Source of the DNA: Raillietiella orientalis | Taxonomy: Eukaryota | DNA: 64,000 bases | Assembly: GCA_036172245.1 (NCBI GenBank) | Contig: JAYWIR010000034.1 | Span: 1,488,001 to 1,552,000, forward strand | Direction: 5' to 3' | In this document: positions 16,801 to 59,847 of the stretch, piece after piece | How the letters are laid out: every line of letters begins with the position of its first letter | How positions within the stretch are numbered: position 1 is the stretch's first letter | Made by a program: the position numbers and the translations under genes | Notes under the pieces: model-generated | What the model saw: the letters and a program-made list of their open reading frames with translations, nothing else | Told to the model about the DNA's origin: nothing | The model's database searches: none

Positions 16801-17050
16801 GTCCAATGACAATCGTGCAGGAAGGGAGCAGGAGGGAGGCAATCTTTTTCCTTTTTGAAGAAGGGGGATTTTCTGCAGGACCAGCGGGCGTTGTGAGCAT
16901 CAGACCGACCCTCAGTAAGGTTCCTAACACATCCTGGAGGACCACTGCTACCACCCACAGCTCCCTTGCCCCTCACCTCGACGTCTTATCCGACGCCACA
17001 CACTGAATCCCATGCAGCTGTCCCTTCCGGGGGTGGTGGGCAAGGACGCG
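13870..17050 (+). mobile_element. Highly decayed LINE ORF2 fossil
   Basis: APE: WKRARHG (~13870), WSKARGIE (~14425, cf. W..SRID), RFQDAGW (~14550). RT: GQIPES..VIFTKG (~15305-15355), SISFL (~15402), ILPTDQ (~15477), FLDAENF (~15515, cf. LDxEKAF), GVRRAG (~15826). C-terminal region: SCPF (~17017). Confidence 0.55.
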
Positions 17051-17149
17051 GGATTCAGTGTATGGCGATAAGGAGCGTGTTGGGAGAAGACCCTCCGCTG
17101 AAAGGAGGAACAGAACCACAGAAAGGATACAAGAGAACTGGGAGAAGGG

Positions 17150-19020: not shown

Positions 19021-20099
19021 TGTGCCCTAAGTCACCCTTAGCTCCGCCTTCGGGAGCGGGAGCAGACCGGAGATCTTCAGTGGGATAGACATCTCGCCCC
19101 ATAGAGATGCTGGACTTCCCATCCAGAGCACCTGGAGGAAAAAAGAAAAGGCAAAAAGAAAAGAACATTTTCCTCCTCTGAGCCTTCGTCGAGTCCTCCT
19201 GCTAATTCGCAAGAGTTGTTTCTCGAGTTCGCCCCTATGACCAAGGGCAGCCAAGGAAAGGAAAGGAGTCTCTTTCTGGAATACTCTTTCTCCGGCCCTC
19301 AGAGCATCCCCAGGCTTCCTGGGATGAAGCGGAAGGAGGAGCCTTCCTTTACCGAAAAACGAGCTCCCGAGCGATGCCCGTGCCTCCTTTCCTCCTTCTT
19401 TCCTCTTCCTCTTCCCTTTTCCTTGTTCAGCAAGTAAGAAGCGCGCTCGAACTGGCGGGATTTGCAGGCGGTCCCTGCATCGCTAGCACCACCGCAAGGT
19501 CCTCCACTTCCAGTCGCTCCTGCCATCTGATCTGAGGGTGAGAAAGTCACATCTCTCCACATCGACCTTCTTCCTCTGTTCCACTTTCTCCTTTCCTCTT
19601 CTCATCATCATCCGTCCCCTCTACTCGTCCTCGTCCTCTTTCCTCCTCTCCTTTAGTCGCCAAAAGTGGCGACTCTGAAGGAAGTTCGCACGCACGAAGC
19701 TCGCAGGTGCGGGTTGGATGCGTTAAAGTTGCTGTGAACTTAGCCTCGTTACCAGCGGTTGAACGAGGATGCAGACAAAGAAAACATTTTGGGATGCGGG
19801 ATGGGGACAAAAGGTAAAACATGAGGCACGGCGAGCTCCCAAGTAGAATCCTGGAGCCATATCACAGTTGATGCTTCCAGGCGTTCCCACTCGTGCAAAT
19901 TTGGGGAAAAAACGAAAACTGAAAAATAAAAAAGATGGAAAGGGCTATCCCCTCCAAAGAGGAACGGAGAGGAGGCGTGGTAGAGCCAGCTGTTCCGACT
20001 TGGTGGAAACAGAAGTCGTTGAAGAATAAGACGCTCACTGAGGCTGCTAGGATGATGTCACGACGCAAAACTCAAGACTTCCCCATCTCCCTCCGCTCC

Positions 20100-23000
20100 T
20101 CGAGCCTCGCTAACAGCGGGCCCCACTACTCTTGCTATTCCCTCGTGTCACACCAATGTGGCATCATGCACTCGCACGGCCGCTGGCTAACGCTCTCGCG
20201 CGCGCGCACTGAGGAGGAGCACGTGACTTCCGCGCACCGCTCGTTCCTTTTTGCATTGCAGAGCGCACGCGCCTTCCCGAAAGATCAGGAAACGACAGCG
20301 GCTCTCCATGTGTTGTAAAAGCGAGCTTTCGTTTCGAGGGACCAACACCAGTGTCTGCCGCGAAGTCTGCATTTTCCCTCCCCTCTCCCCAGCGGTTCTC
20401 CCCCCCGCTTCTGCAAAAGCAGGAATCGTAAACGAATGCGCTTCATCTGGAGGTCCGGAGAGCTGCCAGCCTATCGCGACGGGAAGACTCCCACGCCAGA
20501 GGTCCTTTGACAGGAGCAGGGGTTGCTGACCACTAGGTACTCTGGAGAAGGAATGCAAGGGAGGAGGCTGTGGCGCAGCACGCAGAGGGCCGAGAAGCAG
20601 CACGGACGCGGAGGAGTTTGCACACGCACAGTCGGAAGTGAAACCACGATCGAACCAGCACGAGAGGCCTTCTTTGTTTCGCTGTTGTCTTTCTGCTGGA
20701 AGACGGCCGCGAAACAGCCGCACGTTATTTATTTTGGGATCCCGGTTGCCAGGGGGACGCTGGTTATGCAGTGGTGCACCGGAGCCATCCATCACGAAGG
20801 AGTTATCTTTATTGCGGAACTCCATGCAAACTCGCATCTGCTAACCTCTCTTTCTCTCTCCATCTCCCGATTCACGACCGTGCGGATTCTTTAATGGTCG
20901 CAATAAACAATGGGGCAAGAAAACGTCGTGATGGAGGGAGTCACTACCAATTGGTCATGAGTTTGCCATCGCATCTCCTCGGCATCCTCGTCACTTAATC
21001 AATGATGTGCAGGTGCCTAACTTTGTCCACAAAGAAAGGAAGGCAGGCACCTCCGCTTTCTTTTTCCAAGGGGTGCCCTGAGAATTGTCATCACGATTTA
21101 CCTTCACAAAAGGATGCCTCTTGCCTCGCTAAAAAGGCGACAACCACAAAAAAAAAAAAAAAATAAGGAAAGAGGAAAGCTCTCCATGCCTATGAAAAAA
21201 GGAAGAGTGCAGCGTCACCTGCACTCTTCTTTGCATGTGCAGGCGCTGCAGTCTTTCTTTTTTTTTTTTTTCCATGGTCACCGTTATCAACTGGTGCTCC
21301 TGTTCTAAGATGGTGCCTCCTCCAAGACGGATGGTTCCAAGTGAAGTTGAAACAGGCATCTTTCGAAAGCCGTGGTTCGATGCGTCTCCTTCCAGAAGCA
21401 AACGGCCGTCGGGTCGGTTGGCATGGCACGTGCACATTACTTTCCTGCAGACGGAGGGAGTCGCAGCTGTCCGACCAGAATTGTCAATGTCGGCGACCGA
21501 AACCCAAGAGCACATTCCGACAGGTGAGGCTGGATGCTCTTCGAAGAATACGAAAAGCCAGCAGCATTGCTGCCTACCCGACGGTGCGTCCTCGCTCGTG
21601 TTTGGTCACCCTGAGCGCTCCACAGGTTTTACCTGGATACGCACAGCAGCCCAGAAGCCTTCCCATGGAGGCTGTGCTCATCCCGGAAAGCTGTTGTGTC
21701 CATCAAAAGATCCGTCCATGGCCGGAGAATTCCTGCCGCCGCCGTCTCTTCCCTTCCGATCTTAGGAGGTCTTCGGGGTGCGAATGCCATCGGGAGGTGC
21801 AACTGGCGCCTGGGCTGCCGACTCTTGGATTCCGGTCGCCATCGGCGCAAGAGCTCAGGGAAACTCGGGCACCGCACTTTGTTAATCCCAGTGCCGAATG
21901 CGGACGCCAGACTGCATTCCGCCAGCTCCTTAGTCTCCTCCATCCTTACCCACCCACCCGAACATTGCTTCTCCTCCGTGTCCGGGTCCTTCGTCACTCC
22001 TGCATATTGTGGCCTCTTCCTCTTGCAAGCGAACTCGTTGCAGTGATCCCGTTCTCCCTTTCGAGCGCATTGGAACATCTGCTCATCCCACCAGACCCAC
22101 TCCTTCCAGATCTTCGATTTATCTCTCAAGATCACAGCTTCCTTTCGCTCTCTTTCAAGTCACGTGGTCTCGTCGAGAGCTTTGTCGTTTGAGGAACCCG
22201 AAGAAACTTCATGGCAACCATGAAGACCAGCGGGTAGCATTCAAGATGGAGTTTTGTTGGTTTTGAAGGAGAACAAGAGGAAGAAGAAAGTGCTCAGAAT
22301 ATGGACATCAATGAGCGGTAGTGGGAATGCTTTGATGAAAAAGTCCTCTGGAGAGGTGATGGAATAGGGGGAACACAGCAATCAGAAGAACACTTCCATG
22401 CGATGAATTCTGGGCTTCAGGGGATACACGCGCACGCGCAGGGATGAAGCTGCGGTAATCCCAAGTTTGACTGCCTAGTCGCTTTCGGGGATGCAAGGAA
22501 CAGCAGAGATCGCAGCAGGAGAAGCCAAGAGCGACAAGAAAAGCGAAGCTTGTAGGGTGACGGACCATGGAAGAGGACCGTGAACCGACTCGAACCCACC
22601 ACGTGGATTCGGAAGGTAGGAAGGGATGGTGAGGGAAGAAGGGAAGCCGGCCGCAGAAGAGCAGGGAGACGGACAAACATAGGGGCGGCTTGGGGGCGCT
22701 CGAAAGTTTGAGGAGGAAAGAGGGAGAGAGCTCTTTGTCGTCATCGCACAAATGCCAAAGTTTGGAGTCTTCATTCATTCTTTTACATTGGAAGGGATCG
22801 ATCCAGTGCGACCTCTCAGGAGAGCTTGGAAACTGAGCCGGAACCGGTTCTAAGCGTCTCCAATCCTCCATAGAGCCATCCTCTCCCTATTCCTCTTCGC
22901 TCCTCACAGAATAAACTGAATGGGGAGACAGAGAAATGCACAACCCCGGTCCATGTGCAGGGTCGAAGACAGACAAGAGCCGCGGAGACAGAAAAGAGCG

Positions 23001-23700
23001 GAAAGGCTGCCCTATAACCCAGAGCGGAAAAGGGATGCAGAAAGGATCCATCAGGAAGTAGGAAAATCGGCTCTGCTCATTCTCGTTACACACGTCTTAT
23101 GGCAAACGATCCGGACCTCCTCGAACGCGGTGGTCCACACAAGCAGCATCTGCTTTATGATAGCTCCATAGCTAAGAACCGAGATCATGCAGGAATTGCT
23201 GCCCTCACGCTTGATAAATGCTCAACGGGCAGAAAAAATTCGGGGCATCCGAGCGAAGAGAGAAGCGATTCGTAAATGGGGCGGATGGATAGGTTGGAGC
23301 GAAGGTCAGCCCGTGCGCGCGCGCACCGCCGCAGCATCGTGGAGGTCGTGAAAGCCCGAGCTCCGCAGCGGACGCGCGCGCGTTCCCGGAAATCCCCGAA
23401 CGACACGGAGTAAGGGGAACCCGTCCGACATCATCGGGCCCTTCCCTCTTGAATTCTGGAACCCGCCCTTCCTCCACTCGAGGGACATCTAATAGGACGA
23501 AAATCGCGCGACAAACCCGTAACAAAGCGGTCCCGATGACTTTTTTTGGATGTGGCAGAATCTGAAGACTTGGTGTCAGGACTCAGCAATACTCCCTTTC
23601 CCTCGTCCATATTCTTCTCCGGCGTCAGCTGCGTCTTGCATCTCAGTGGTTCCTGGATTCGAAACATTATCCACAAGAGAAGACCTCGTGACTCAAAGTA
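20100..23700 (-). mobile_element. Highly decayed LINE ORF2 fossil (APE, RT, CCHC)
   Basis: APE: SFGDF (~23400), SYHK (~23160). RT: LLMDTTAF (~21700), GRQQCCWLFVFFE (~21560, cf. RQGDSLSPLLFSIFFE in the young element at ~61345-61391). C-terminal CCHC remnant CALQCKKE..HVLLLSARAR (~20200-20270). Confidence 0.55.
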
Positions 23701-24705
23701 AGATGCTAGTGAACGAGGAGTGTCCTCAGTAGCACCTCAGTAGATCCCACCCATGCATTCCACCCTCCTCGCGCTGCAGTCCCAACTCTTACCCCTAGAT
23801 TGAGAAGCCAGGGTGCCCACAAACAGCGGGAAAGCGTTCTCCTTAAGAGGGCGGTCTCCTAAGAGAAAAGGGAAGGGAAGGGTGAGTGCCCTGGTTGCTC
23901 CGCGTCATGGTTCTGGAAAGTGCCTAGGGGCACGATCCTTCCCCCTCCCTTATTTCCCCGAATCTACGCAGACCCTCTCGTGGTAAAACGGAAGGGGCAC
24001 GACATGGCTGGGAGGTCGGGGAACCACCTTAAGTCAGGATAGAGGGCATCTGGGAAGCATCCGCTAACGGCAGTCTGGATCGGGAAAAGGCCTGAGAGAT
24101 GTAAACGTTTAGCCACCTTGGATGGGCGGAGGGGGAAGGATAAACGAGAAAGCGGCATGGCTGAGCGGTCGTTCCAGGAGATGAGATGAGAAAAGAGAGC
24201 TTCGAGGCCGGACCTGACCTCATGACAACGTCCAGCACGCAATACTCCACGTTGCTGACGTTGTCACTCCTGGAACCCTTGTGGTCTCTACTTCAGAAAG
24301 CAGGGAAGCCTCCAGGCTCCCTTCCTTCGACCCCGTACCGCGTCTTCCTGAAACAGCAGCGCAAACACACTTGCCCTTGCCAACAGCAACAGACGCTGGA
24401 AGTGCAGAAGACGAAGGAGCGGAGATGACGAGGAAGCAGCTGACCGAGCAGAGCAGCCTTCCTTGAAGGGGCGGAAAGCTGTTTTCGGCTCGCTTACCCC
24501 TTCATTTTCCTCGCCCTCCTTCCCCATGGACCTCACTTTCATCCCCTCCCATTCCATCCGTAGCCCACCGCGCCGTCGGCACTTGAGCAGGAGAAGGACG
24601 AACAGCCCTTCAAGTCTCCTTTCCTGGTAGAGGGACTTTCTGAGCTTCAGCTTTGCGCAGAAGAGAGGGACCCAACAATAACAACTGACTACCCATCACG
24701 GCTAA

Positions 24706-25800
24706 GCAGATCCTGGACCCTTAGGGGGCTCTGTAACCTAACAGTTGCAAGAGGAGTGTCCGGTCGAGATCATTTGCAAGAAGCTGTTAGGAACGATCAG
24801 TCAGGGGCTTCGAGAAGCCACCGGTGCACGTGCAGGATTGGGAGGGGGGGCGACAGCGGTGAGGAAGACGCGACGAAAACCTGCGCGCGGCCGTATTTGT
24901 TCACAACATGAGCGCGGATCTGTGTGATGATGCGTTTTTCGAAGACCACTCCACTTCCGTCCTCATTATAACCTCACACTCTGCTGGTTGATTTTTCGGG
25001 AATCCCTTCTGAGCATGCGCAGTGTGGCGCGAAAAGCTTTCGGTTCGCTGAAGGTGTATAGCATTATGAAAACTTCGTGTCACCACCTGAATGGACGGGG
25101 AAGCCCGAAGACAAGGAGCATGGTCTCTTGGGAAGGATGCGGAGGTCGCAGGTGAGGGAAAGATTAAAATAACAGCATTGGGAGCATCCGAGCGGGAGGA
25201 TTGCAGAGAGGTGGAAACGAAAGGGGACCCTTGGCGGGAGCCGAAAAATTGCCTAAGCAGCTTTGACCGAGAGGACCAAGCCAAGCAGAACCAAACAGCA
25301 GCAGCAGCAGCGGGCAGACTCGTTGGAAGAGACTCCAAGAGCGCAAAGGCGGTTACCAAGACATGGCAGACGAATCCAGGCGCTCTCCCTCGACGAAACG
25401 TCTGTGCCGGATGAGATCGCGGAAGAAGATGGAAGTCACTCCTCTCACGCCCGTTGTGGACCCCTCCGGGGATGAGGCACGAGTCGAACAGTGCACAGCG
25501 CGAAGCCACCACGAAGGAGAAAGAATTCCCTAGGCATTCGCACGTACCGATGTCGGCGGCGAACATGCGAATTTCTCCGAATGAACGAAGGGACCAGGGG
25601 CCAGCAGCTACCCACGGCAAGCGGCAAAAAATCTTTCTTTTTCCCCGACCCGAGAGGAATATCCAGGCAGCAGTAGCGAGACAGAGTGCTACAAGAGCGA
25701 GCTCGGTACCTGGTCGCGGGCCTCTTTTCGAGCTCGATACTGGACACTAGGCAAGGATCAGATGCAACGACGTCGGCAAGCAGTCTCCTACTCTGGAGCG
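24706..25800 (+). mobile_element. Decayed LINE APE endonuclease and linker fragment
   Basis: A single frame reads SWTLRGLCN...DHLQEA (~24711-24785, cf. SWNxRGL...DxxxLQE). Then GGGATAVRK (~24841), LLVDF (~24981), AWSL (~25118) and DPWREPK (~25226). Confidence 0.55.
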
Positions 25801-28094
25801 CAGCCGCAAAGATGGATTGCCTTAAGCTGAAATGCTTGGTGCCAGCAGAACAAACACATGTTTCATAGGCATATTATATTTCTTGCGTGCAGATGTATCT
25901 GTACACATATGAAGTAGTGTCGCGCGGAAAGATATGCAGAGAGCAACAGCGAAAGAGTTTTCTGGAAAAAAGTGTGCGACGGGAAACAATAATTAATTAC
26001 GACGCTGGTCCCAGAATCCTCGATTCCTCCTAACCACCACGTGATGTGGTTGGCAGCAAGACCTCGCCTTGTTCGAACACCTTGCAGGGAGGATGATCAG
26101 CTAGAAACGAAGGCGGTGCTGTTCTTCGTGTTGCTGCTGCTGAAGATGTAAGCGATGTTGCTGGAATCGCGTTTCACATGCGACCGAGATTTTTGTTTTT
26201 TTTTTTTTATTTTTCACCTCCCTCGAACGTGAACCACGCGTCCGCCTTCCCCCCTTTCCACGCCACTGGTTCCACCACCTAGAGGAACGAATCCCGCGGC
26301 GACATCCACGTGAGCGCGCACGCTGGCACTTTGGCGCGCATCTGAGTTCCACGCCCGGTTCCTGCTCCAAACAAGTCGACCTCGTAAGAGTTCATTCATC
26401 GCACCCGACACACACAATTCCCTCCCTCCACGTTCCAAAACACCACCGCCAACAACAACAACGACGGCAAGAGGAGCATAAAATTGAAGGAAAAGGCTTT
26501 GCGCGCGCGCCAGTTGGCGCAGAATTTACGAGGTCCCTCTCGCGTGAACGAACAGCGCGCGCACGGAAAAAAGGTACTGCAGCTTCCTTCCTGTTCCTCC
26601 CTTCTCCGACTGGCATCGCTTAAACGCAAGTTTACACCTTCGGCGCAGTACGAAGAGGGTCGTTCTTATCCACCGGAATTTAATTACGCGCGGCGAAAAG
26701 GAAATTCTTGGAAGAGAGGGGACAGGTAGGGAGAGGGGGCAAACGGCTGCAGAGCTCGTAAACTCGTTTCTTAAACGGGAGCAGCAGCAGCACCCAGACG
26801 TTTAGGAAGGCAGGGAAAGAAACAGATTAGAAAAGCACCTACTCTTGCATGCTGCAAAGGAGAAGCGGAACGAACCGCAGGCAGCAGCAGCAGCAGCACC
26901 AATGCCTGCTCAAGCGCAAAGGAAACTCCCGAATCCATCACGATTCGATAGATGCGCCCACGTTGCTTCAATGGTTCGCCATCCTATGGCGCCAAAGCCG
27001 ACAGCAGGTGCGTGGAAAAACGGGGGGGGGGGGGGGGAAGGTCCGCGTATTCATCCAGCCCTCTCATAGCTGCCGCCCGCACTCAACCCAACCACTTGAT
27101 TCCGCGCAACTCGGATGCATGGACCACCACCGAGAGAGTGACCGTAGGCAATCACGAACTTCGCTGGAACCGGAACTCTCTCCAGAAGGCGAGCTCGCGC
27201 GAGTCCCATCTGACAGGCAGTCGAGAAACAGCATCTCCCCCGGTTGACAAGACAAAGGCAAGCGGGGCAGAAACGCGGAGGCATCCGTGTGACAGTAGTG
27301 ATCAGCCTCCCATCATCTCCGTTCGCAGCAAGATGCTTGCAGCATGTACGGTTGATGAACAGCCTCCATCCGTCCATGCCATCATCGGAATCCTTGCGTG
27401 CTGCTGAGCGCAGGGGGACATCAACGTGGGATCATGAGCACCAAGTGATGCGACCACGACCGGCGCGCGCGGTGAAAAAAGAAATCAATGGTCAGGAGGC
27501 CACTGGTCAACCACGACAGAGGACTGCTAGCCGCTGCGACTGCCTGTGTCGCTTTCTCTGAGCGAATCGACGCGTCTCTTCAGGATTTGTTAGCTGGAAG
27601 GCACGCTTCCCAGGAAGACAAAATGGTGAAGGCTGCCACCGTTGTTCCAACAACCCCGTGGAACAGCATCCATCAAAGAAAACAGATAAAGTGATGTGAA
27701 GAAACGGGGGATGGAGGAGAGGAAGAAATCGCCAAGGTGGGTCGAGAAAAAGGCGGAGAGGCCACTTGGCGATTGCCACGATGTGTGCGCCAGGGGAGCC
27801 ACGCCTTAGCGCTGCTGCTGCCTTCCTCCGATCCTCGAGCGTTCGAGGGATGACCAGCGCTGGATGACCGGTCCGGGTTCGGGAGAGGATGCGAGAGCCG
27901 CGCTTGTTCGATTCGTTGAAGCAAGGGAAAAGGGGGGGGGGGGGGGAAAGAAGTGAGCATCCCATCTTGCGCATGGGTGAGCACGATGCGGAAAGGCGTG
28001 ACGCGTGTGCGATCGCACGTGTGCTCAAAGCGCATCGATCCGCCTGCGCACCCACCGCCCAACTCTTCGCGCGATGCAGGGGAGGCGGCGCGCG

Positions 28095-28115
28095 GACGAC
28101 GACGACGACGACGAC
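28095..28115 (+). repeat. (GAC)7 microsatellite
   Basis: Read directly from the sequence. Confidence 0.95.
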
Positions 28116-28423
28116 CATTGGTGGTGCGGCGACTTTGACCACCCGCTCGCCTCCCCCCCCCCCTTCGTCGTCCTCCTCCTGTCCTCCGTTCCGTCTGCCT
28201 GCTGGGCGAACAATCCGCGGGATGCTTTTCTCTGGAGCAGCACCGTCGGCCCGTCCTGCGCTGGCGCCGGCGGAGGAATGGGGTGCGTGCGTGCGCATTG
28301 TGACGCGCCTCCCCGTTCGGGGGTGTCTCTGCTGCTGCGCCCCTTCCATCTGCCATCATACCGTCCGGATTTTGTGTACAACGGAAAAACGCGCTGTGCA
28401 ATGAACAACCATTGTCTAACCTC

Positions 28424-28436
28424 CGCGCGCGCGCGC

Positions 28437-28474
<38 letters not shown>
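28424..28474 (+). repeat. (CG)7 directly followed by AAA and (GA)17
   Basis: Read directly: cgcgcgcgcgcgcg at 28424-28437; GA repeat at 28441-28474. Confidence 0.95.
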
Positions 28475-28480
<6 letters not shown>

Positions 28481-30799
28481 TTCTTTGCATTCTGCTTGTC
28501 ACAAGTGGCAGTGCAGTGGGGGGGAGAGAAAAGCAATCCGGATGAATAATGAGGGGCAATCCATTCATTCTTTTACGGCTTCGATAACTCGCCAGGTTAA
28601 ACTGATAAACTTCCAGCTAGTCAGCAGAGTGCATTGTCAACACAGAAATTGAAACGTTCATCTCTTTTTTTTTTTTTTTTTTGCATCCTTCCTCTTCCAA
28701 AAAAAGATGGGGGTGGGTTCGAGGAGGGTGGGGTGGGGGAAGAACACAGGAAAAGGAATGAAGACAACTTCCCCACTCTCTCTCTGTCTGTCTCTCTCTG
28801 AGGCAGAAATTTTCTCTTTAATTACCAAAACCCAGGTATGCTAAGGCCGAAAACAATCAGTCAAGCCAGCAGAATCAGTGGGCGCAAACTTGTAGGGGAA
28901 GGGGGGGGGGAGGGGGAGGGGAGAGTCGTACGATCCTGCTCCCCCTCAAACGAAAACAACTTCAAGGAGACTGCAAAGGCCCACCTTCCCTTCAGCCTCG
29001 GGAGACTGCACATCTCGCATTCCAGTGAACCGAATGATTCTCATTCTGCAGCACCGTCACCGTTGTGTATTTTGTATCATTTTATGCAAATGTCGGTAAG
29101 GACGCCTAATTTACAGCGGGAGCATTCGAGCTCGGTCCCCAAACAACAAATAAATATGGCCTGTTCCTATGGCGACAAAGGATACCGAACGGTCAAAACA
29201 ACCCTTTGGAAAATTTCCGTGCTTTTGTTTCCGAAAACGCAATGGTAATAAGAGGCAGAGCCAAGACCGAGGCAGTGATTTTATTGACCAAAGCGAATCT
29301 GCCAGCTTCGGAGGGATAATTCGAAATGGTGCGTTTATTTATGCGAAGACCTCTTCGTAGGTCTGCACGGTGCACTGGAGAGAGCGCACGGGCAACACGA
29401 AAAAAGGGGGGAGAGAGAGGGGGGAGGGGGGAAGGAAAGAAGGGAAGGCTGGGAGAACGAACGGTGAGGAAACGCGCGCCCCGATGGGCGGTGGTTCGCT
29501 TCTGCGGCGGCTCTCGTCGGGACGTAGCGAGGGGTGGGTGGGTGGGGGGCGCCATCAGCATGGTGCCGTTGCTGCCGTCCCGCCCCAACCGAACCAAAGA
29601 GCGCGTCATCACGCGGGTAAGAGCGCGCGTGGAAAACGGAAGCGAACGGCCGTGAAAGTCGACGGAGATTCTGCTCAAGCGCGGGATTTCAGGGCGTGCT
29701 CGATAGGGGGGGGGGGGGGGGGGATCCTTTCGTAGGGCCGGGGCGCGCGCGGCGCGGCTGCGGTGGCGCCTTCCCCCTTCGAGTGCTGGACTTGCCCTCT
29801 CCCTCTTCTCAACCCGGTTGCCAGCCAACGGTTCCTCTCAAGAACTCTGCCGCGTCACTTGGAACGGACGAAAGGCCGACGTCAGCGAGCGCCAACACCT
29901 CGGATCTGGCGCACTCGTTTTCGCCAATCCCATGCTGTCTGCCGCACGTTCGACCACACGGCCTTCTTCCGAGCACATCCTGCTCTGCCCGGCGACCAAC
30001 TTATTTTCGTTCCTTTATCTCAACCTATCTACAGATTACACTTCCGATAACGAAGTCTGCTCGCAGGTTCCACGAACACCTCATTTTTTCTTTTGCTTCT
30101 TTTCTCTCGTTCGTAACGACAACTTGGGATGTTTTATTGTTTCGACGCCATCGCGAACAATAAAATTGCAGTTGTAACTGCGTTGATTTTTTTTTTTTTT
30201 TTTTTTTTTTTTGCGTTCCGTTTTTACGACTTCTGCACATTGGTAATTTGTATACCGATCGTCCTGGTCGATAAAAGGTCGTATTTTCTGCTTATACGCA
30301 TGCAAACGCTGATAAAGATCTACATAATTCCGAGCATGCAATTAAAGGCACAAGATGAAGAATTTCGAGTTTCCACGGGGTGACGAACAACCAAATCTGT
30401 TGTAAATAGGCAAAGGAGCATTAACTAGAGGAAGGGCGTGCACGAAAACTTGGAAGGGATTGTCGTATAATTGAGGGTTCCTCTCATTACATTCAATTAC
30501 GAGAAAGCAAAGATCGAATGCCAAGCCATTACCGCTTCCATTAGTGCGCGCAAGAAATCATTCGAAATTCGACCAGAAAACCAGAAAAGCTGCTTCGAGC
30601 GAAACTTTTACACTTTTCGTACACCTTCGAAGCTCCGTGCAAATTTTTCGAGTGGAAAGAGAGAGGAAGAGCGCTGGAAGAACGGTCAGCTGCCATCGAG
30701 CGCGCCATTATTCTTCCAACCGTCTCCGAGTCCACTTGCAGTGCTTTTGTCCACTGCGGCATAAACATAAAATTCCCGTTGCATGGAGAAATTAAAAGG

Positions 30800-35200: not shown

Positions 35201-37527
35201 CCCTTCGTTTAAAAAGGGAATGCCAGATTTAAGATTAGCATACCAAAACCACAAGTAAACAACGGTTCCGGATGGGCACGACACAGAATTTTTCTTCTCT
35301 TTTATATCTTGAAGATCCTTTTAAAAAAACACGGAAGAAGAAGAAAAAACTTCAAACTGAATAACTTGCACTTCCTGTCTACAAAACACTTGAATGCTTG
35401 CTCACAAGTAAGCACACGAGCATCCTATTCTGCAGACACTTGAAAGTGTCGAGGTAATCTTGATGAGACAACAAAGAACGCTCTTCAACACGTGAAAAGT
35501 GTCGGTGCTCTCTTCATTCCCATGAATGGCAAGACCCTTCCAACGCTCCACACAACTTTATGCTGTTGTAATGTTTGAATAATGTATATTGGGAATTCAT
35601 TTACCGACGCATCATTTGTATTGAAAAATTTTGTTTAGGGAGCAACCTTTATTCTGGTTTTCAAAACATCTCAAACCTTTACGGCGAATTGTCTCTTCAG
35701 AGAAAATGCAATGAGCTTTCCTTCGCAATTTACTTCCTTGCACTTTCCGTGCAGTTTCTTCTTTAAGTCTGAACTATTACTGCAGTGGAAAACATACTTG
35801 AATTGCAGGAAAAAATCTTATGGAAAACAGTACCGAAAATTCTGTACAACGTATTCATTACATTATTGCAAACAAAGTTACCGCAAAATTCGTCAGCGCA
35901 ACTTCACAGCAAACATCAACATAACTTTTTAAAATGTAAACTGGTACATTTCTAATCATAACTGCAAATCCTTCCTATGGAATTGACTCTGAAAATTTAC
36001 AAAAATGAAGCGCAATACAGCCAATCAACACCTTCAAAAACTTTGCTGCTCATGGAGAAAGAAAACGTCTTCCTGATTCAAAAACAAATTTTACACAAAC
36101 AGTTGATCCTAAAAATCATCGAATAAAATACTTCTGCAAGCATCACATAAGTATGATGAAAAAACGAAATCACCAACATGAAACCCCATGACTAACCATA
36201 ATCACAATAATGACAAATAATGATGCACTGCTAAGGAAATACTATCAAATAATATTAATGTTTATTGAACAGTCTGAATCTTTATTTCAAATAACACACA
36301 TTCTTATACTATTAATTAAACACAGAAATGAGCACATAATTAACATTACAAGTGAGTCATAAGGTATAAGCTTGAAGAATTCTACCTTACCTTCAGAAAT
36401 ATTGATATATCAAACAAGGATACAATAAATACCATTGATGGCTATTTTTTTTTGTTAACAGTTAAAATGAAATGTAGGCATTATTAACCACAATGCTACA
36501 GAAATTATTTATGGCAAATTTTATTACTTTCAAAAGCATCGCAACTTTTGCATATTTTCCAACATCTTCTATGTACTACCAATCACTAAAGATAAAGCTG
36601 GTCATTAATGTACAATCTTTATTGAATTCTAAATACACGTACAATTAAAACTATTCAAAAAAAGTTATTGGATAATCGCCAAATGAAATACATGCGAAAT
36701 GCATTTGCATTATCAGAATACCAAATTATGTTGCTTTGAACTTCAATGTGATGACTCTCAAAATATATGCATTTGGCATTTTAGTAAAGAGGTCTCACTA
36801 GGGACCAAACGAATTTTGCCAGTAATTTTGCCAACAATTTAGGGTATCTTGCCAATATCCATCAGTATTTCAGACAAAGGTCACTTTTGGAAATCATTAC
36901 GCAAGATTTCTCATTTAATATATTGATTGGTATTGTGCATACTTTAAATTATAGTGCAATGTAAGCATAAATATTGAGGGTTTCATTGCACAAAATTCTT
37001 TATTATCCAATCTGTCAATCTTATAGTTAAATCACTATGTCACAGTCACCACCAAGTCTAATAGTTTTCAAGTATGCCAGTTTGGTGGTGAATTGTTCTC
37101 TTCATAATATTTTAAATACTACTTCAACCATTCAATGATTAACGCCAAGTGCTACCTGGTGAAAAATTGCATAAGTCAATCACAAATATCAAGTATTCAT
37201 AATCAAGTATACACTGCATGATTGGCTTTGTTTTATGTTTTTTCTCTTTTTTGTTTAACTTATATAATAACAACTTGCAAGGAAGACTTTGGTTATTGTA
37301 TGTAAATTTCATTTTTTTCTGGTAATTTGGTAAAAGATTTGATGGAAAGATGCATAGTACACAGGAAGATTTGGAAAATTAACTGTTCTTCCTATCAAGA
37401 GTAAATATTTCCTAACACTGCACCTTAATGAAGGAGCCATCATAGTTTATAATTCCCAAAAATGAAGGCAAATCAACTCATGTTTTTCATTTATTCATGT
37501 TCAAATCATCAACTTATAAATAATCTC

Positions 37528-40049
37528 TCAATAAATCTTACCAGGATAAGAGCTGGACTGCCCAATGGAATAACTTTTGGCATCATACGAAGTGTATCCT
37601 TGGGAAGAATACCCAGAAAATGAAACTCCTTCAGCTACAATAAAATAAACAAACTAACAATGTATAACAAAATAGAAATGTGCATTAGCCCTCAGATCTC
37701 ATAATCTTTGCCCATTGGGAACTTCCTCAACAAAAGATATTGAATGACTATTACACCAACACACAATAGTCTGAATTAAGTAATGGCTATAAGCCATCTT
37801 GCTATCGAGCTAAAATAGCCAGCCAGGGGGCATTCCCAACCTATGACAGAACATCCCTCAATGTACCTTCAAAAAGGTACATGTCATTAGTACATTATCT
37901 CTGTCAAGGGACATTTCTTGTACCCCCTTCTCCATTACAGAGATCTCCAGCAGGGAGAGAAAACAGCTCTTGTCTCAGACCTTCCCAAGGACTAGATGAG
38001 TAACAAAGCACTCTTGTGTTGTCCCTTAAGCAAGTATGCATCAGTAAACATTCAATAATTATATCAAGGTCTCCCTGGCATGAATGGCTATCATCATAGG
38101 GCTACTGATGCACTCGGCACTAGGAACTACTGACCTGGTTTGCTTGAATCAGCCTGATATAAAAGTCCTCCATAGTTAGGTGGAGGAGGTAGTCCTGAAT
38201 AAGCTCCCACATTGGCAACCCCTACATACATAAAACAAACACTTGAATAATAAATTCTTGATTTTACCTGTTTTTTCGTAAGACCCATATGGTGGTACAT
38301 AAGAATGAGCTCCATAACACTGGGAACCATATACCTGCGCACGTTCTGTACCCTTGTCAACATGATCACCAAGAGGTTTCTCAGAAAGCGCCGACTCTTC
38401 AGGATTATCAACAGATCCAACAGAATTATCATAGTTCTTATCAGCAGCATATGTTTCTTCTGACGCATTGGGTACAGGTTTTTCAGGCTGACTACTGTCT
38501 AGGCTAGGATTATTATATGTTCCAGATTTATAACTTCTATCTGGTACAAAACTAGTATAAGAACAAGTAGCAGAGTATCCAAAGTTTCTCTCTGAAGAAG
38601 TGTTCCCATAACCACCAGTTACTGGGGTATTGTAACCTCTTTCGGATGGAGAGTTCCGATAAACAACTGAATTAGGATGATCAAATCCCCTGTCAACAGG
38701 AGGATTTGCAAAATTATTGTTTGAATGAGGACTACCAAACTCTCTATCAATAGAAGGACCACTATAACTGCTACTTATGGATCCTGCATATGGCTTCTCC
38801 AATGGATTCTCACCATAGGTATTTCCTGGTCCACTAAAGGATTGGCTAGGATAGCCACCGTAGCTTTGTTCTTCAGAACTAAAGGGTCTACCAACAGATC
38901 CAGGATATGCACGGTTTAAATTATCATCATATCCCACATCAGGGGCACTAGCTAAACCACAATTCCTATCTCCTGATGATCTATACATTCTGTCCCCACT
39001 ACTGCCATAACTCATTTCTCCAGAACTATTGTAGCCACCTCTCATATTAAAACATTTTTCTGGATTGTAACTTCTGTTTCCATATCGATCATTGGAACCA
39101 CAAAATGGGGGATCAAGAGAACCATCACTTCCTTGCTCTCTACCACCACATCCTCTATCTCCTGAACTATGATCTCTTCTATCATCTGGACCATAGCCTC
39201 GATGTCCAGAACTACTGTATCCCTTTTCACCAGCAGCATGCTCCCTACCATGTTCTCTGTAATCTGATCTTCTATAGTCTCTGTCATTCCCACGATCACT
39301 CCTGGAGTTAGAATAAGGTGAATTGCTGTATGCACTTCTTTCTTCAATTGGTTCTCCTCGACTGTAACTAAAGTGCAGTTAAACTTGGCACATAAATAAA
39401 AAACATAAGTACTTTGAATGAGATCGGTAGCCACCTCCAACATGATAATCATAAGGTTTCTTGTATGGAGATCCACCTCTGAATCTTTCACCAAAGCCTC
39501 TGCAATTTTGTGAGCGAAATTAAACTTAAAACCATGTTAAAGTTATTACCGTCCACTTCCTCGAGCACCAAAATTTTTACTAAATCCCCTATTTCCTGAG
39601 CACACAAAACTTTCAAAGTATACTTGTAATGTCCAGCTTACCTCTTGCATTCATCCTGCCTCTAGGCACACCTCTACCAAAATTTCTAAAAGCATAGTTC
39701 AAAAACGAAACATATAAGTGTGAAACTCACCTCCCATGACCAAACCGCCCTTCAAACCTTCCTCTCCCCGGAGGTAAACCCCTCATTCTTAAAAAATATT
39801 TTAAAACATGAAAATTTGAAACGCAAAGAATGTTACAAAAAAAACAACGCAGAACATTTTAAAGTTCAATTTCCAAATGTTCCAATGTACAAAATTCTGT
39901 TACTTCGTAAGATGCGCGCGTAAAGTTATGCATTATTACCGACTCCTAAATCCTCCACGAGGCCCTCTTGAAAAACGATCCGAGTCCCCCTGCTCATGTG
40001 TATTGCTTGGAGCTTCACTTGGTTCAGGTAAAAACTGAGATGCATCCAT
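37528..40049 (-). CDS. Unnamed RGG/RG- and S/Y/G-rich low-complexity protein, ~545 aa; host gene of RNase P RNA
   Basis: Frame-consistent model: complement(join(37528..37634,38135..38221,38268..39367,39413..39499,39550..39595,39642..39685,39731..39787,39940..40049)). All introns are GT-AG (152, 45, 46, 50, 45, 46, 500 nt). Protein reads MDASQFLPEPSEAP..RGPRGGFRSRMRGLPPGRGRFEGRFGHGRNFGRG.. and joins ORF 38176..39045 in frame. A GTAAG donor at 37541 could add a short last exon ending NIYS* at 37395. No globular domain recognised. Confidence 0.8.
37755..38045 (-). ncRNA. RPR: Eukaryotic nuclear RNase P RNA (RPR / H1-type), intronic, sense to host gene
   Basis: Conserved regions: CR-I GGGAAGGUCUGAGAC (37972-37986), CR-II AGAAA, CR-III UGGGA, CR-IV AGCUCGAU, and CR-V ACUUAAUUCAGACUA (37767-37781) which pairs with CR-I to form P4. 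Helices: P1 actgatgcata/tgtgtgttggt (extendable by tattgaatg/cattcaata to 37738-38057), P2 cttgct/agcaag, P3 with internal loop, P8 tctcc/ggaga, P9 tctct/ggaga, P10/11 gggggta/tgccccc, P12 atgtccct/agggatgt, P19 atggct/agccat. Confidence 0.95.
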
Positions 40050-47960: not shown

Positions 47961-49198
47961 TCATGTAGTGACTTCTTCAGCACCAACATCAGGCTCATCT
48001 TCCACACTGGGATCAAATTCTAATCTTTCTTCGTCATCTAACGTTTCTTCCATTTCACTAGCATTTAAAGCATTCAAAGTCACATCTGCACATTTACTCA
48101 ATAAAGTCTGTTTTCTTTTAATTGATGGTGGCAGCACGGAATTTTTTTGGGATAATCTGTCTTCTTCTACATCTGCATTTTTTTTTGGAGATGAAGGCAT
48201 CTCAATTCCAGCAACCTGATATGATTTTCTTTTCAAACCTTGTTTGATTTGAGATCTGTAAATTTGAATAAAAACTTTTAAGGTACATTACCAATATTCT
48301 ATTACTTTATTACTAAATGTGAGGATCTGGTGCCCTAATGATTAATAATTAAAATTTAATATATTCAAGTAACCACATCCTATTTTATTAAAAACAATCT
48401 AAAGTAAAAATAAAAATAAAATCAACATTCAATAATGTAATTTTTATTTATTTATTTGTACAACTGTAAATTACATTGAAGGCATCTTATGATTTTAATT
48501 AACTCACATATTCCGTAATTTTATGCTCTCTGTTATACTACTCAGTTCATCAGCAAAATGCTGTAATGCATTATGCAGCTGATTTAACTCAGATGTGGTC
48601 CACTTGCCACTAAAATAGTATCATTACTTAACCCTCAATTATGATGCAAAACAACACTGAGATCGTATGCATCACATATTAAATTAATATAACAAAGTAT
48701 TTACATTCATATTTGCTCCCATACTGACCCTGAGGTATTATCTGCTGATGAATGCAACTGCATTGTTAATTCTGCAAGTTGTGTAAAAGCTAATCCTGCT
48801 GCATTAAAAATTTCTCCAACCTGCAATTCGAATGAACATTAAATGCCAAGAAGTAAAAACTTTCATTTGAAATCAACTGATTTGACGGAAAAATCAGCCT
48901 GTATGCCCCCAAATGTACAATACACATGTACGCGTTACAAAGTTAGCCAGCACAATATGAATTCATTTCGTGATGCTATCTGAATGAAAGATAACTGACT
49001 TCAGCTTGTATACGGCACGCTGACAAAAATGTCTTAAAACATCTGTAACTGACATCAGATATCTTCACCGTTTTCGACATATTGCAATAACAAAGCAGTG
49101 TTCTATAACTGATATACACTATAAATAATAATGAGTTCTACGAAGACAATGTGTTCTACAATTGATTTGGGAATACCTACCTTGCTAGTTGCGCTCAT
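47961..49198 (-). CDS. BAP18: Chromatin complexes subunit BAP18 (SANT-like), 168 aa
   Basis: complement(join(47961..48255,48508..48609,48729..48820,49181..49198)), all GT-AG and in frame. Protein reads MSATSKVGEIFNAAGLAFTQLAELTMQLH..GKWTTSEL..SQIKQGLKRK..DVTLNALN, matching the recalled BAP18/C17orf49 motifs. Confidence 0.93.
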
Positions 49199-51725: not shown

Positions 51726-53705
51726 ATGGATAATAGAAGAGGAAGAAAAATTCGTGGGAAATCAAAAACACTTTCAAGAATAAAATCAAGAGGAAAAGGA
51801 AGAAAACTGAACGTGGTGAGTCAATAACATACAATTTAAATAAGATGTTTGTCTCTTGTAAATTTTCACATTCCTATTTCAATATGTTTATGCGTGATAT
51901 TGTTCTTAAATGCTATGCTGAAACATCTTATGAAACAAACGATCATTAAATAATTGGGACAGTGATTTCATGCGATCAATTTGAAGACTAAGCAACAAAA
52001 CCTTTTTATATAAGTACATGAACAAACAAACAACTGTGTAATTGTACTGCCCATTTTGGGAATATTATAAGAACTTTGCTGACTGTCATTCTTGTAGTTG
52101 TTTTAACGAAGGAAATGCAGAAACTCACGCAACTAGTATTCATTTCAGAATTTTAAGCGTCAATTCTTCAAATAGTTTCAATTTCATTGACTTTTTAGAA
52201 ATACTGATAATTGCTTTTTTTTTTTTTGCAAACCGAGGTACCTATTTGATCGTACATGATCGGTTTTCAAAATTGAAGCACAATTCTTGATAAGTTACAC
52301 AGGTATCAGTATGCCTGTTTTTGTGAAAGGGCTTAGAGTTTTATAAGAATCAGTTCGAACATTTTAACTAAGTGGATCAAGTTTTGACACTGATGCATTT
52401 TGTTAAGCTGTTTTGTGATTGTTACAACTCACATAGCATCTTTTAATTAATGCAAAATTAAAAAATATGGTTTTCAGTTTCCTAAATGTGCAGACTTTGT
52501 TGGTATTCATCTCATTTCAAAGCAACAATTCTATTCTTTACGAAGCAAATAATTCTATTTTGAATTTAATATCCATAATGGCGATTGTAAGAGATGGTGA
52601 ATTTTAAATTTCATTTAGGATGAGAGCCCAACAGAAGATGATGATGATCAGTTATCAATTACTGCAGAAACTGAGGAGGAGGAAAAGCCACAGGAAGAAA
52701 TGATTATTCCAGAAGGTATAAGTTGTAATAATAATTTGATAAACTAATATGAATGTTTAGGAATTAGTCTAGAGGAAGACATCCTTCAGTTAGAAACACC
52801 TGTTTTCACAACTATTGATAGAGGTCCTCCTGAACCCATGCTTCGCCTCAAGTGGGATCATTGTGTAAATCTGTTGGGTGAAAAGGTCCTGAATCCCATG
52901 ATTCATGTTTGTGAGATGTGTCACAAACCTATACTGGTATATGGTAGAATGGTAGGCATAGTTAGCATTATTTTGGTGGTATCTCACATGAAGCTTTCAG
53001 ATTGCATGTAAGCATGTGTTTTGCTGGCCATGCACACAAAATGATCTGAAGACCTGTCCTCGTTGCAAAGAAAAGGTGGAGCGAATTGAAAAGGCTGTAC
53101 TAGGCACAATTTTCATGTGTACACATGGAGGCACAAGATATGGTGCTACAGGTTGTCGGCGGACATATATGTCTTACCGAGATTTGCAAGCCCATATCAC
53201 TCATAGACATTTTCGGGCCCCCAATCGTGATATGTCCGAAAGCCGCATTACATCTAAATCAGATGTGCAAAAGGAACCCTTAAGAGCATTGGAACCCAGC
53301 CCTCGGGATCCCAGACATCATCATTCAGACCATTTATTTGAGGGACATGCAAATTATCAGCAAGGATCACATATTCCTGTAGTGAACACTCGCACCAGCA
53401 CACTTATCACAGTGCCTATTCATGATAGCCCACTAGAATCCCAGTCTTATAAGCAACCAGCACCTTATGCAACCCCACTGAATTTTGCACCTTCATCATA
53501 TGCCTACCCTAAGAACCCATCATATGCACAGGCACATTTAGCACGTTATCCTCCACCTAGTTTGAATTTCCCTCCTCCCCGTCTTCCTTCCTATACACAA
53601 GGTGTTGCACCTTACTCAGAAGCCAGCTATGGTACTCAATGGACTACTCCACCTCCAAGACATCATCATCAACAACCTTCTAGCTCTCATCAATACTACC
53701 GTTGA
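51726..53705 (+). CDS. CBLL1: E3 ubiquitin ligase Hakai (m6A writer-associated), 360 aa
   Basis: join(51726..51815,52619..52715,52761..52951,53001..53705). Basic RG-rich N-terminus, [48 protein letters not shown]2H2 [31 protein letters not shown], Pro/Tyr-rich tail. Close to recalled arthropod Hakai sequences. Confidence 0.96.
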
Positions 53706-53767: not shown

Positions 53768-56700
53768 TCAGATCCCATTCATTAGGCTCAGTGGTGGACT
53801 AAGCAAATCTTTGTACTGATGCAATGCTTCCTTTAGATATTGAGCAACTTGACTGGAGCAAATGACAGTGCAGTCTACCAAATAAGGGTACAATTTGATA
53901 AGCTGATCCCATGTGAATGCATCCACTGATGATAGAGTGAGAGTTGATCTTAGCAGCCTACTTACCTTTTCCATGCTGGCACTTTTTCAGAGAAGCAATG
54001 AGCGTGGCTATTGTTTGCAGCACAAAGGAGACTTCTGCCATGCGATCCCTATAAAAAGTTGATTAAAAAGCATATTAGGTATTGTCCTTACCGGGACAAT
54101 GGAAACTTTCCACTTGAGTGCTCATCTGTAATGTACTTTTGCAATACCTCTTGGAATCTATGCAATAGAGAAGTAATAGCCAGATGACTGGTTACTGAAT
54201 TTTCATCTTGTGTCACCAATCCATCTTGCAAAGAAAGCTGCAAGAGTGCCTCAAAGCAAGTTCGTGCTAATTCTTCTCTCATCCAATAAGGATGCTGTTC
54301 AATAGTTTCACTACAGCTCAATTGGATAGATCCTTTGTTTAGAAGCAGCATGATCTGTATGAGAAATTCATTTGGCAAATATTCAGGCTGCTGTAAAATC
54401 TCATCCCTCAATAAGTGAATGAGTTGACAATCCAGAGCTTCATCAGAACGACTCTCTTCTAAGGATTGTGAAGGGGGTGATGGACTAACCTCCAAAATGA
54501 GATATGCTCATGTCAATTAGATTACCTTTGAGGAAATAAGAATTCATCCAAAGTTGCAGCGATTTCCAACCAGGTGTTACTAAAATTTTCTGGAGTCTTC
54601 CTCAGAACAGAGAGTGAAGTTCTGATGACTGATTTCAGAACACTGATGGCTACATGCCATGTAGATTGTGCAGGACAACTATACTTCATTGACAAAGGCA
54701 CCCTGAGCGTGCTAATGATCATGTGGAATACACCACCTTGGATAACAGCAGGATTAGCATGCCATTTCTGATAGGCCAGACATGTTTCTTGAAGGATTTT
54801 CTCAGCAAATGGCACCAGATTTGGATACACCCATCCCACCTAGTACATTTTTATAAATAAAAGCCATGGATATATTTACGTTTGAAGATTTCAAAGGAGC
54901 TAATGGAGGACACTTCAGGGAACCAAATGTTGGTGGATGGCAGCCCCATTTGCCCAGTTCCAGCATGAGTATAAAGATGTGAGGTAAAAAAGAGGTTTCT
55001 TCATCTCTTTTGTCCTCTTCCTAAGTTGAATAAGCTTAAAACAACAGCTTGTTGTTCATTACATCTAGTATAAGCTGCAAACAGCGTAGCACTCCTTCCT
55101 GTACTGATGTTAGAGAACCATCAAGAACTGATGGTACTAGGAATGGTATAGCATCACTGTGAATGGGAATGACAAGCACACCCCTGAGAATATGTCCCAG
55201 TTTCATCAGGTCATCACCCAAAAATCTAGGCAAACGAAAAAATAAAGAACGTACATGAATATAACTTACCTTTTTTTTATGCCAGGGAAAATATCAGCAA
55301 ACAGTTGCATAAGTAAAGTCAGAAATGGTTGAGAAGGTAAAATCAGTGTATCTTCTGCGATGTTTTCTGGTGGGACTTCAATGGATTTCATACCAATGCG
55401 GCACCATGTTTTCCATGCAGCATCATTCTGTTTTTGCCATTTTTCATTCTGCACTTGTTCATGATCTGCATTCAGTTCTTGAAAAGCTTTCAATGCTGCC
55501 ACAGATAACTGCTCAAAAATGCCATTATGCTATCAGTAAGTGTTAATTTCCATACTTTATTGTTCCTGCTGAGAGCATAGCGCTCTATATGCTCCAAAAG
55601 CAGTACCCATGCATGGTGGAAGTCATCCAAGGAATACAAAAAGCTTTTTTTTGAGCCAATCACACGAGCTACTCCAGTGAGGGATAGAATCTGTGTCTCT
55701 GACCATTGCTTCTGTGCTGTGTTTCGTGTATGATGAATGAGAATATTTTCTGTAAGGTCCAATTTGTCAGTACTAGCTGCTGCCGCCAGCTTAGCCACTT
55801 TTTCCAACAGGGGGAAAAGCACCTGCCAGCAAAGCAACTGCCAGGTAGACAGCTGGAGAAGTTGACCATGTGCTGCGATAGTTGAGAAAAGTGTTTGGCT
55901 GGCTGATTTGCGCACTGCTGCCCTCTCATCAATGCACAATTCTCCTATGATCTAAATTTTTCCTCCAAACTATGAGACTTACATACCCAACTGAGTGTAC
56001 AAGCACATCCACAATCTATCAAAAGGAGGAACTTCACAAATCCCTGGAAAGGGAGGAAGTCCATCTTCTTTTGTCAAATTCATTTGGATACGTTCCTGAT
56101 TTCTAAACAGAAAATCTGAAATGCTCCACTAATGATGAATAAGAGAATGATAGCATTATAATTAGTTTCTTACCATAAGACCCACTGCTGTCAAAGACAC
56201 GTTAACTTCCACATTCTGATTTCCAAACTTAGTAGTAACATCAATCAACTGTGGGAGGCAACCAAGTGGTAAAATTGGTAGAAAATCAGTAACTACTAGC
56301 TGTAGGCATTGGAATGCTGTTCGAATGAGATTCTCTCTACATGATATAAAGAAAAATAATTTTTAAAAGTTTGTTAGAAATATTAACCCATGAACACTAT
56401 TGAGAGCTCCAATCATGCTCAACAATAAAGGCCATCCTTGAACAAGAGACTCTCCAAAACTATGAAGGATTTGCATGACACACTCCAACTGCTTTTGACG
56501 AATATCCAAAAAGGGGAAAAAAGATAATTCAGACAAGGGAGACAGCAGAAATGTCTGTGGAAATGAATTTGGATAAACTAGTTCCAACAACGCTTCTTAC
56601 CAGGTTGTTTTTGAAAAGGGAATTGTAAGGAGGTTGCATGGTTTCCCGTACTAATTGGATGATTGCTTCAACTCCTGCTTCTCGCATTTTGAACTGTGGA

Positions 56701-59700: not shown

Positions 59701-59847
59701 TATATTGGCCTGGGTCACAGTGGATTGTAATTGAAATACCTCCTTAATATGATGATGCTTCTTTCTGGTTTCTAATATCAGAAGTTTCATATCGTTTTGC
59801 AAATTTTCATATAATTTGCTTATTTCTTCGGTTCTTTCTGAGATCAT
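53768..59847 (-). CDS. MON2: Protein MON2 homolog (ARF-GEF-like endosome-to-Golgi trafficking regulator), 24 exons
   Basis: Traced 24 in-frame exons with GT-AG introns; first exon 59740..59847 ([29 protein letters not shown]), last exon 53768..53925. Motifs: [104 protein letters not shown]. Confidence 0.96.

Follow-up and report, generated by a model that had tools for sequence, protein, structure and literature searches.

The 64-kb window analyzed here (64,000 bases, to which all coordinates below refer) carries, on its minus strand, a gene for the RNA component of ribonuclease P (RNase P), lying within an intron of a gene that encodes a protein with arginine- and glycine-rich (RG/RGG) repeats. 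When all 64,000 bases were scanned with cmscan against 4227 Rfam families at the gathering-score cut-off, the sole match in the window was nuclear RNase P RNA (RNaseP_nuc, RF00009) at 38045..37755 on the minus strand, with a score of 123.9 bits (gathering score 28) and an E value of 3.7e-35. The match is untruncated and full length (model positions 1–301 of 301), and its alignment includes both conserved region I (CR-I, GGGAAGGUCUGAGAC) and conserved region V (CR-V, AAUUCAGACUA), whose P4 strands, GUCUGA and UCAGAC, respectively, read as reverse complements, making the P4 pseudoknot possible. The specificity-domain elements AGAAA and UUGGGAA are likewise visible. The covariance-model comparison with RNase MRP RNA that the preliminary description had called for came out on the side of RNase P, in that RNaseP_nuc was kept as the best overlapping family within clan CL00002 (the MRP score itself is not displayed). 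The RNase P RNA is complete and of the nuclear type, as that description had proposed, with a full-length match and CR-I and CR-V intact.

Folding of 38066–37730 gave, in both the minimum-free-energy (MFE) and the centroid structure, a perfect 9-bp helix between 38057–38049 and 37746–37738, which extends P1 outside the P1 of the Rfam model. The outer ends of this helix agree exactly with the limits first proposed for the RNA (37738..38057). The parts of the gene are as follows.

37755..38045, minus strand: RNaseP_nuc core (Rfam RF00009, model positions 1–301)
38049..38057, minus strand: 5′ arm of the P1 extension (UAUUGAAUG), predicted in the MFE and centroid folds; partner 37746–37738
37738..37746, minus strand: 3′ arm of the P1 extension (CAUUCAAUA), predicted in the MFE and centroid folds; partner 38057–38049
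37736..38060, minus strand: extent of the RNase P RNA according to RNA data of a ~97% relative (a contig of run X1, see below); 325 nt, 5′ end 38060, 3′ end 37736

The minus strand was then read for the surrounding gene and the exon borders were located by script, which yielded a sequence-level model of the host with eight exons, seven GT-AG introns (152, 45, 46, 50, 45, 46, and 500 nt, in order) and one open frame of 545 codons ending in a TGA at 37530–37528. The RNase P RNA is situated in the seventh intron, on the host sense strand. The borders of this intron are a GT at 38134–38133 and an AG at 37636–37635, the reading frame is preserved across the junction, and the flanks measure 74 nt from the donor (CAG/GTCAGT) to the 5′ end of the RNA and 101 nt from its 3′ end to the acceptor. 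The preliminary description had already placed the RNA on the sense strand of a 500-nt intron (37635–38134) in an RGG-protein gene whose other introns are mostly 45–50 nt long, and all of this holds in the gene model: the GT and AG borders are in place with the frame kept, the other introns measure 45, 46, 50, 45, and 46 nt plus one of 152 nt, and RG/RGG repeats begin the product of the 545-codon frame, with RGG repeats in exons 2–5. Exon 8 reaches the stop codon after 104 nt, which makes intron 7 probably the last intron of the host. The exons and the intron, as placed by the border script, are listed below.

39940..40049, minus strand: exon 1, from the first ATG of the open frame (MDAS...RGPRGGFRSR); a further 5′ exon upstream is possible
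39731..39787, minus strand: exon 2, RGG repeats
39642..39685, minus strand: exon 3, RGG repeats
39550..39595, minus strand: exon 4, RGG repeats
39413..39499, minus strand: exon 5, RGG repeats
38268..39367, minus strand: exon 6, 1100 nt, an open frame rich in Ser, Gly, Tyr, Arg, and Asp
38135..38221, minus strand: exon 7, ending in ...SSKP, directly upstream of the RNase P intron
37635..38134, minus strand: intron 7, 500 nt, GTCAGT...TTGTAG
37528..37634, minus strand: exon 8, coding part and TGA; a GT at 37541 could serve as a donor, but the frame is open without it

For evidence at the RNA level, two weakly matching runs, a metatranscriptome (X1) and a DNA run (X2), each sharing 0.06 of words, were compared over 33000–50000. 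In X1, 10 contig pieces fell on this 17-kb stretch. One of them, a 294-nt contig with a depth of 435, covers 37869–38060 and then continues over 37736–37834, with a joint from 38060 to 37736 that goes back 325 nt and has neither shared nor inserted letters; read in the direction of the RNA, its 3′ end (37736) runs on into its 5′ end (38060). Six differences from the window occur in the 192 nt over 37869–38060 and none in the 99 nt over 37736–37834, so that the RNA comes from a close relative or from another population (~97% identity). RNA cover in X1, at a depth of ~400, is bounded at 38060 and 37736, and the two ends brought together by the joint reach 3 nt and 2 nt beyond the extended P1 helix, as expected if exonucleases had trimmed the RNA as far as a protected terminal helix. 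In a close relative, as distinct from the window's own genome, there appears to be a discrete, abundant RNA with its ends at 38060 and 37736.

The joint itself could have arisen from a circular RNA, from template switching by the reverse transcriptase or, less likely, from a tandem duplication in the DNA. The last of these is unlikely because the repeated unit ends within 2–3 nt of the ends of the terminal helix. A lariat was considered and rejected, since it would link 38134 to a branch point near 37660–37690 rather than 38060 to 37736. A few chimeric reads suffice to close such a path in an assembly graph, and we therefore take the joint as evidence for the two RNA ends and not for a circle. 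Separately, over 37805–37895 (the P12 region), X1 contains several short variant contigs with depths of 357–600 and two to six differences each, a sign that the sample contains more than one allele, gene copy or related species. Outside the RNA, one further X1 contig marks a stretch downstream of the host stop codon, and X2, with 62 pieces, does not cover 37536–39236, which is not evidence either way.

37294..37495, strand of the RNA left open by the contig: probable host 3′ untranslated region, transcribed in the relative (X1 contig of 201 nt, depth 2.4, three other letters and one gap)

The organism was placed by means of MON2, whose gene is found at 53792–59829 on the minus strand with many short introns (located as tblastn pieces; Pfam matches to Mon2_C, E 5.9e-55, and DCB). 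Three trees were built, namely, a FastTree tree with 28 rows and two IQ-TREE trees under LG+G4 with 18 and 26 rows. In these trees, the window MON2 fell on the pancrustacean side of a branch supported at 100, 99, and 100, respectively (Shimodaira–Hasegawa [SH]-like or SH approximate likelihood-ratio test values), a branch that splits off the millipede, the chelicerates and the mollusc, fish and cnidarian outgroups; in all three it lay outside a well-supported insect clade. Its sister group was unstable, being an ostracod in the FastTree tree, a copepod in the IQ-TREE tree with 18 rows and unresolved with a collembolan and an ostracod in that with 26 rows. The window branch is long, partly owing to intron-flank residues in the stitched sequence. 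Protein searches with two MON2 exons returned arthropod proteins at up to 67% identity and none above that value, so that the library searched contains no close relative. As judged from these trees, the organism is a non-insect pancrustacean, for which we name no order.

We next consider the signals that would allow the RNase P RNA gene to be transcribed on its own. Type-3 RNase P RNA genes of RNA polymerase III (Pol III) have a proximal sequence element, a TATA box 21–27 nt upstream and a run of four to five Ts at the 3′ end, and some poly-T stretch is found in ~40% of the embedded RNase P RNA genes (PMC4287351). At the window gene, there is no TATA at −21 to −27 from 38060, where 38081–38087 reads CCATTCA. 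The TATAAT at 38063–38058 and the TTTT at 37735–37732, to which the preliminary description had drawn attention as a caveat, are both present in the sequence, and together with the internal T runs they make up the following set.

38058..38063, minus strand: TATAAT, the only TATA-like hexamer; it overlaps the 5′ end seen in the RNA data and is placed at −18 to −13 relative to the Rfam start, off the type-3 position
37732..37735, minus strand: T4 run directly after the RNA 3′ end
37871..37875, minus strand: internal T5 run in the P12 region of the RNA
37963–37960 and 37815–37812, minus strand: internal T4 runs in the RNA

Of the type-3 features, therefore, only the 3′ T4 run fits, the TATA being misplaced and three T runs of at least four (T4, T5, and T4) lying within the RNA. 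The AT-rich part of the window has a background of 3.65 such runs per 325 nt, and because the internal count of three is close to this rate, T runs in the RNA appear not to be selected against. Moreover, there is room for a proximal sequence element only in overlap with the splice donor and the exon, since the 5′ splice site lies only 74 nt upstream. As far as sequence features can tell, the lack of a positioned TATA and the three internal T4–T5 runs argue against Pol III.

To set these features against other RNase P RNA genes, a universal 15-mer was used to collect at least 116 metagenome loci, 20 of which were scanned. Seven of the 20 contained an Rfam-positive RNase P RNA, and the flanks of the six that were full length were compared. 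The controls with an upstream TATA (L022, L080, and L112) had no internal run of four or more Ts, and a run of T4–T11 followed just downstream in 3/3. Conversely, the related controls without a TATA (L081 and L103) had internal T4–T5 runs and no T run downstream, and a GTAAGT lies ~100 nt upstream of L081. By these features, the window gene groups with the TATA-less L081 and L103. The RNAs of these two loci score 122 and 132 bits (L081:44–365 and L103:50–365, both on the minus strand), short complementary flanks (GACCCA and UGGGUC) extend P1 in L103, and both loci are probably further intron-embedded arthropod genes. The remaining control, L005, is almost identical to L022 but lacks the TATA. 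Whereas L022 (789–1102, plus strand) has a TATATA ~35 nt upstream and a T11 downstream, L005 (5635–5948, plus strand) has no TATA and only a T5; their contigs share an accession prefix, and the pair may represent a functional gene and a dispersed copy. At L097 (35–1015), the CR-I 15-mer recurs 14 times at a spacing of ~75 nt, in a tandem array that bears no relation to a complete RNase P RNA (nhmmer E 2.4). No close relative of the window RNA was found in the metagenomes by exact 21-mer, and none was found among the loci listed, with nhmmer scores of at most 41.6 bits; nor did tblastn find the host protein at the metagenome RNase P loci, beyond one chance-level match (E=3).

In all insects and crustaceans examined, the RNase P RNA genes are embedded, lack Pol III signals, both the proximal sequence element and the positioned TATA box being absent, and have varied recipients (PMC4287351), in agreement with the statement of the preliminary description that these animals place the RNA in introns of genes transcribed by RNA polymerase II (Pol II), with the host varying by lineage. 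The route by which such an RNA is made (Pol II, splicing, debranching, Rat1/Xrn2, the exosome, and protection by Rpp proteins) has been demonstrated experimentally in Drosophila (PMC6797745). The sense placement in an intron and the membership in Pancrustacea fit the clade in which embedding is established (PMC4287351). Given this background and what is observed at the locus, namely, an RNase P RNA in sense orientation within a canonical, frame-preserving intron, no TATA at the type-3 position, T runs inside the RNA, a pancrustacean source and the RNA ends seen in the relative, we consider it likely, at roughly three chances in four, that this non-insect pancrustacean RNase P RNA lacks a separate promoter and derives from the host pre-mRNA by the Pol II/intron route. 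Pol II would transcribe the RGG/Ser-Gly-Tyr-rich host gene, and the 500-nt intron 7 would be spliced out and debranched. Exonucleases would then remove the flanks, with Rat1/Xrn2 trimming the 74 nt on the 5′ side and the exosome the 101 nt on the 3′ side, until halted by the folded RNA under the protection of the Rpp proteins bound to it. The long P1 helix with its 9-bp extension would mark the stop and leave the 325-nt RNA from 38060 to 37736. The dependence on Pol II, the splicing and debranching, the trimming by Rat1/Xrn2 and the exosome, and the protection by Rpp proteins are steps that we infer by analogy with Drosophila (PMC4287351, PMC6797745).

Several observations weigh against this reading. 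A TTTT begins at the very next base past the mapped 3′ end, for which the chance is 1.9% per position and 5.2% within 0–3 nt, and a T4 in this place would be expected to remain if transcription by Pol III had ended at a terminator and the RNA had then been trimmed. The first base of the RNA is an A, a usual start for Pol III, and the Rfam scan found no other type-3 gene in the window that would define the proximal sequence element of this lineage. The X1 RNA is that of a ~97% relative and not demonstrably of this locus. Neither the junction 38135/37634 nor any coding exon occurs in the 10 contig pieces of X1, missing cover being evidence neither way. Lastly, the crustaceans of PMC4287351 had two to ten RNase P RNA copies each, so that the window copy need not be the functional one.

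An alternative is a type-3 Pol III gene that is independent of the host and simply happens to be located in the intron, starting at A38060 and stopping at the T4 at 37735–37732, with the U tail then trimmed. The purine at the start, the TATA-like hexamer close to it and the low chance (0.019) of a T4 abutting the mapped 3′ end all speak for such a gene, and a Pol III RNase P RNA within an intron is known in the centipede Strigamia, though there it is antisense (PMC4287351). However, the TATAAT overlaps +1 instead of lying 21–27 nt upstream, the polymerase would need to read through the internal T4, T5, and T4 runs, which were absent from all three metagenome RNase P RNAs with a TATA, and the RNA starts only 74 nt from the splice donor. 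In addition, every RNase P RNA examined in the clade of this organism lacks Pol III signals (PMC4287351). We therefore regard independent transcription by Pol III as unlikely.

It is also doubtful, although compatible with the Pol II/intron route, that the window gene is one of several RNase P RNA paralogues with little or no role in the enzyme, the functional gene residing elsewhere. Each of the five crustaceans examined had at least two copies, with ten in Daphnia (PMC4287351), and the X1 variants at 37805–37895 would fit more than one allele, copy or organism. On the other hand, the window RNA matches the family at full length and with a high score, its conserved regions are intact, and the abundant X1 RNA is identical to it over the 99 nt at 37736–37834 and departs from it at only 6 of 192 nt over 37869–38060. 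That the host is a noncoding transcript like the snoRNA host genes, its open frame being without function, is very improbable: the lack of a homologue for the 366-residue exon (1,835,955,588 representatives, word index, and Atlas, see below), the lack of a Pfam domain and the very low complexity of the composition would suit it, but the 400-codon stop-free frame at ~40% GC and the seven introns that all keep the frame, giving 545 codons, make a real coding gene far likelier.

Returning to the Pol II/intron route, we also asked whether the end-to-end joint could be a property of the RNA, i.e., whether part of the RNase P RNA in this lineage is a covalently closed circle with 37736 ligated to 38060. 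The extended P1 helix would hold the two ends of the released RNA side by side for ligation, and a circle would make the ribozyme resistant to the exonucleases that trimmed it. A limited literature search turned up no circular animal RNase P RNA, and we hold the circle to be improbable.

The host protein begins with RG/RGG repeats and continues with a region rich in Ser, Gly, Tyr, Arg, and Pro (S 85, G 82, R 49, and Y 46 of 545 residues), a composition of very low complexity. A frame of 400 codons runs without a stop in DNA of ~40% GC, for which we estimate a chance of ~1e-11 at ~6% stops per codon. Searches for families and homologues were made with single exons, by which weak similarity spread over several exons could escape. 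Within this scope, no Pfam family was found in the host exon frames. With the 366-residue translation of exon 6, none of the 1214 word-sharing candidates of a word-index search reached E≤0.001, the ESM Atlas gave no usable match, and an exhaustive HMMER search of 1,835,955,588 representatives returned 0 matches. Thus, the host is an orphan gene, without a detectable homologue in the protein libraries searched exon by exon.

Since a region rich in Asp, Arg, Tyr, and Gly makes eIF-4B, a recipient in insects, superficially alike, this protein was considered as a candidate for the host. It was rejected because no RNA-recognition motif (RRM) occurs in the host exon frames or in any of 109 open reading frames (ORFs) of at least 38 amino acids on both strands of 36.3–37.6 kb and 40.0–48.2 kb; neither did these ORFs contain any other convincing domain, with only one chance-level match to MASE2. 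The host is none of the recipients named in the available text of PMC4287351 (ATPsynC, eIF-4B, Rcc1, Mbs/PPP1R12B, and a USP43-like hydrolase), has no Pfam domain and no homologue, and the earlier impression that it is unlike the reported recipients stands to that extent. We call it an unreported host because no homologue is detectable, and not on the strength of a comparison with the list of crustacean recipients.

The neighborhood of the host contains several further features. The MON2 gene is adjoined by an exon of the Hakai E3 ligase (zf_Hakai, E 3.4e-16). At 47964–48838, three short open frames on the minus strand, two with the starts VGEIFNAAGLAFTQLAELTMQLH... and GKWTTSELNQLHNALQHFADEL... 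and one with a Lys/Glu-rich tail, would belong to the next gene upstream of the host; we take them to resemble the chromatin protein BAP18, for which Pfam gave no significant match. An ORF in the GC-rich stretch 60000–64000 (46–56% GC) matches RVT_1 (E 1.4e-13) and is probably a non-LTR retroelement (LTR, long terminal repeat). The window also shows an abrupt shift in composition, from 53–61% GC over the first 30 kb to 30–44% afterwards. Long open frames occur in each of the six frames of the GC-rich block, yet its 16 largest ORFs gave no Pfam match, and neither tandem repeats nor an Rfam match were found in it; it may be a large noncoding island, old repeats or an assembly join.

1..30000: GC-rich block
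47964..48838, minus strand: three short open frames
52992..53705, plus strand: Hakai exon
53792..59829, minus strand: MON2
61128..61751, plus strand: ORF with RVT_1

Work on Drosophila published in 2015 reported that, in insects and crustaceans, this essential ribozyme left its separate Pol III gene and came to lie in introns of genes transcribed by Pol II, with the recipient changing repeatedly (PMC4287351). Hence, the arrangement itself has been in print since 2015, and variation of the recipient between lineages is known; a full-text search for later work on crustacean recipient genes brought up only the 2015 and 2019 papers as relevant. What is new here is the orphan, low-complexity RGG recipient, its occurrence in a long-branch non-insect pancrustacean and the mapped RNA ends with their end-to-end joint. 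With a fast-evolving orphan rich in RGG and Ser-Gly-Tyr, the known recipients are no longer confined to conserved housekeeping genes. Should the organism turn out to belong to the oligostracans or the entognaths, which could not be sampled in the 2015 paper, the locus would be informative about the timing of the embedding. The joint supplies putative mature ends of the RNA and raises the question of circularization, for which, taken alone, it is weak evidence.

Among known systems, the closest is the RNase P RNA of Drosophila, which lies in the last intron of ATPsynC (PMC4287351). The two genes share the sense intronic site and the lack of a correctly placed TATA, the intron is the last there and probably the last here too, and in both the intron flanks must be trimmed off the RNA. 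The window gene differs in having another host, one without a homologue, in belonging to a non-insect pancrustacean and in the T4 that abuts its 3′ end; furthermore, the dependence on Pol II, splicing, Rat1/Xrn2, and the exosome, shown for Drosophila, is here inferred. The crustaceans Daphnia pulex, Lepeophtheirus salmonis and Eurytemora affinis (PMC4287351) belong to the same broad clade, and their RNase P RNA genes are embedded, lack Pol III signals and lie in recipients unlike those of insects, features that the window gene appears to share. They carry 2–10 copies each, and the host described here may yet be identical with one of theirs. In Strigamia maritima, the RNase P RNA gene likewise lies within an intron, but it is antisense and has typical Pol III signals (PMC4287351), in contrast to the sense orientation, the lack of a positioned TATA and the internal T runs of the window gene.

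Beyond RNase P RNA, intronic snoRNAs are released by splicing, debranching, and exonucleolytic trimming, and a terminal helix together with bound proteins defines their ends. The route proposed here would be the same, i.e., a stable RNA protected as a ribonucleoprotein is obtained from a spliced intron, although the cargo is a 325-nt ribozyme rather than a guide RNA. Finally, a circular RNase P RNA has been reported in some archaea (PMC4238349), and a joint of the 3′ to the 5′ end is likewise present in the RNA data analyzed here; in contrast to the archaeal circle, however, this joint is that of one assembled contig from one metatranscriptome and may reflect template switching.

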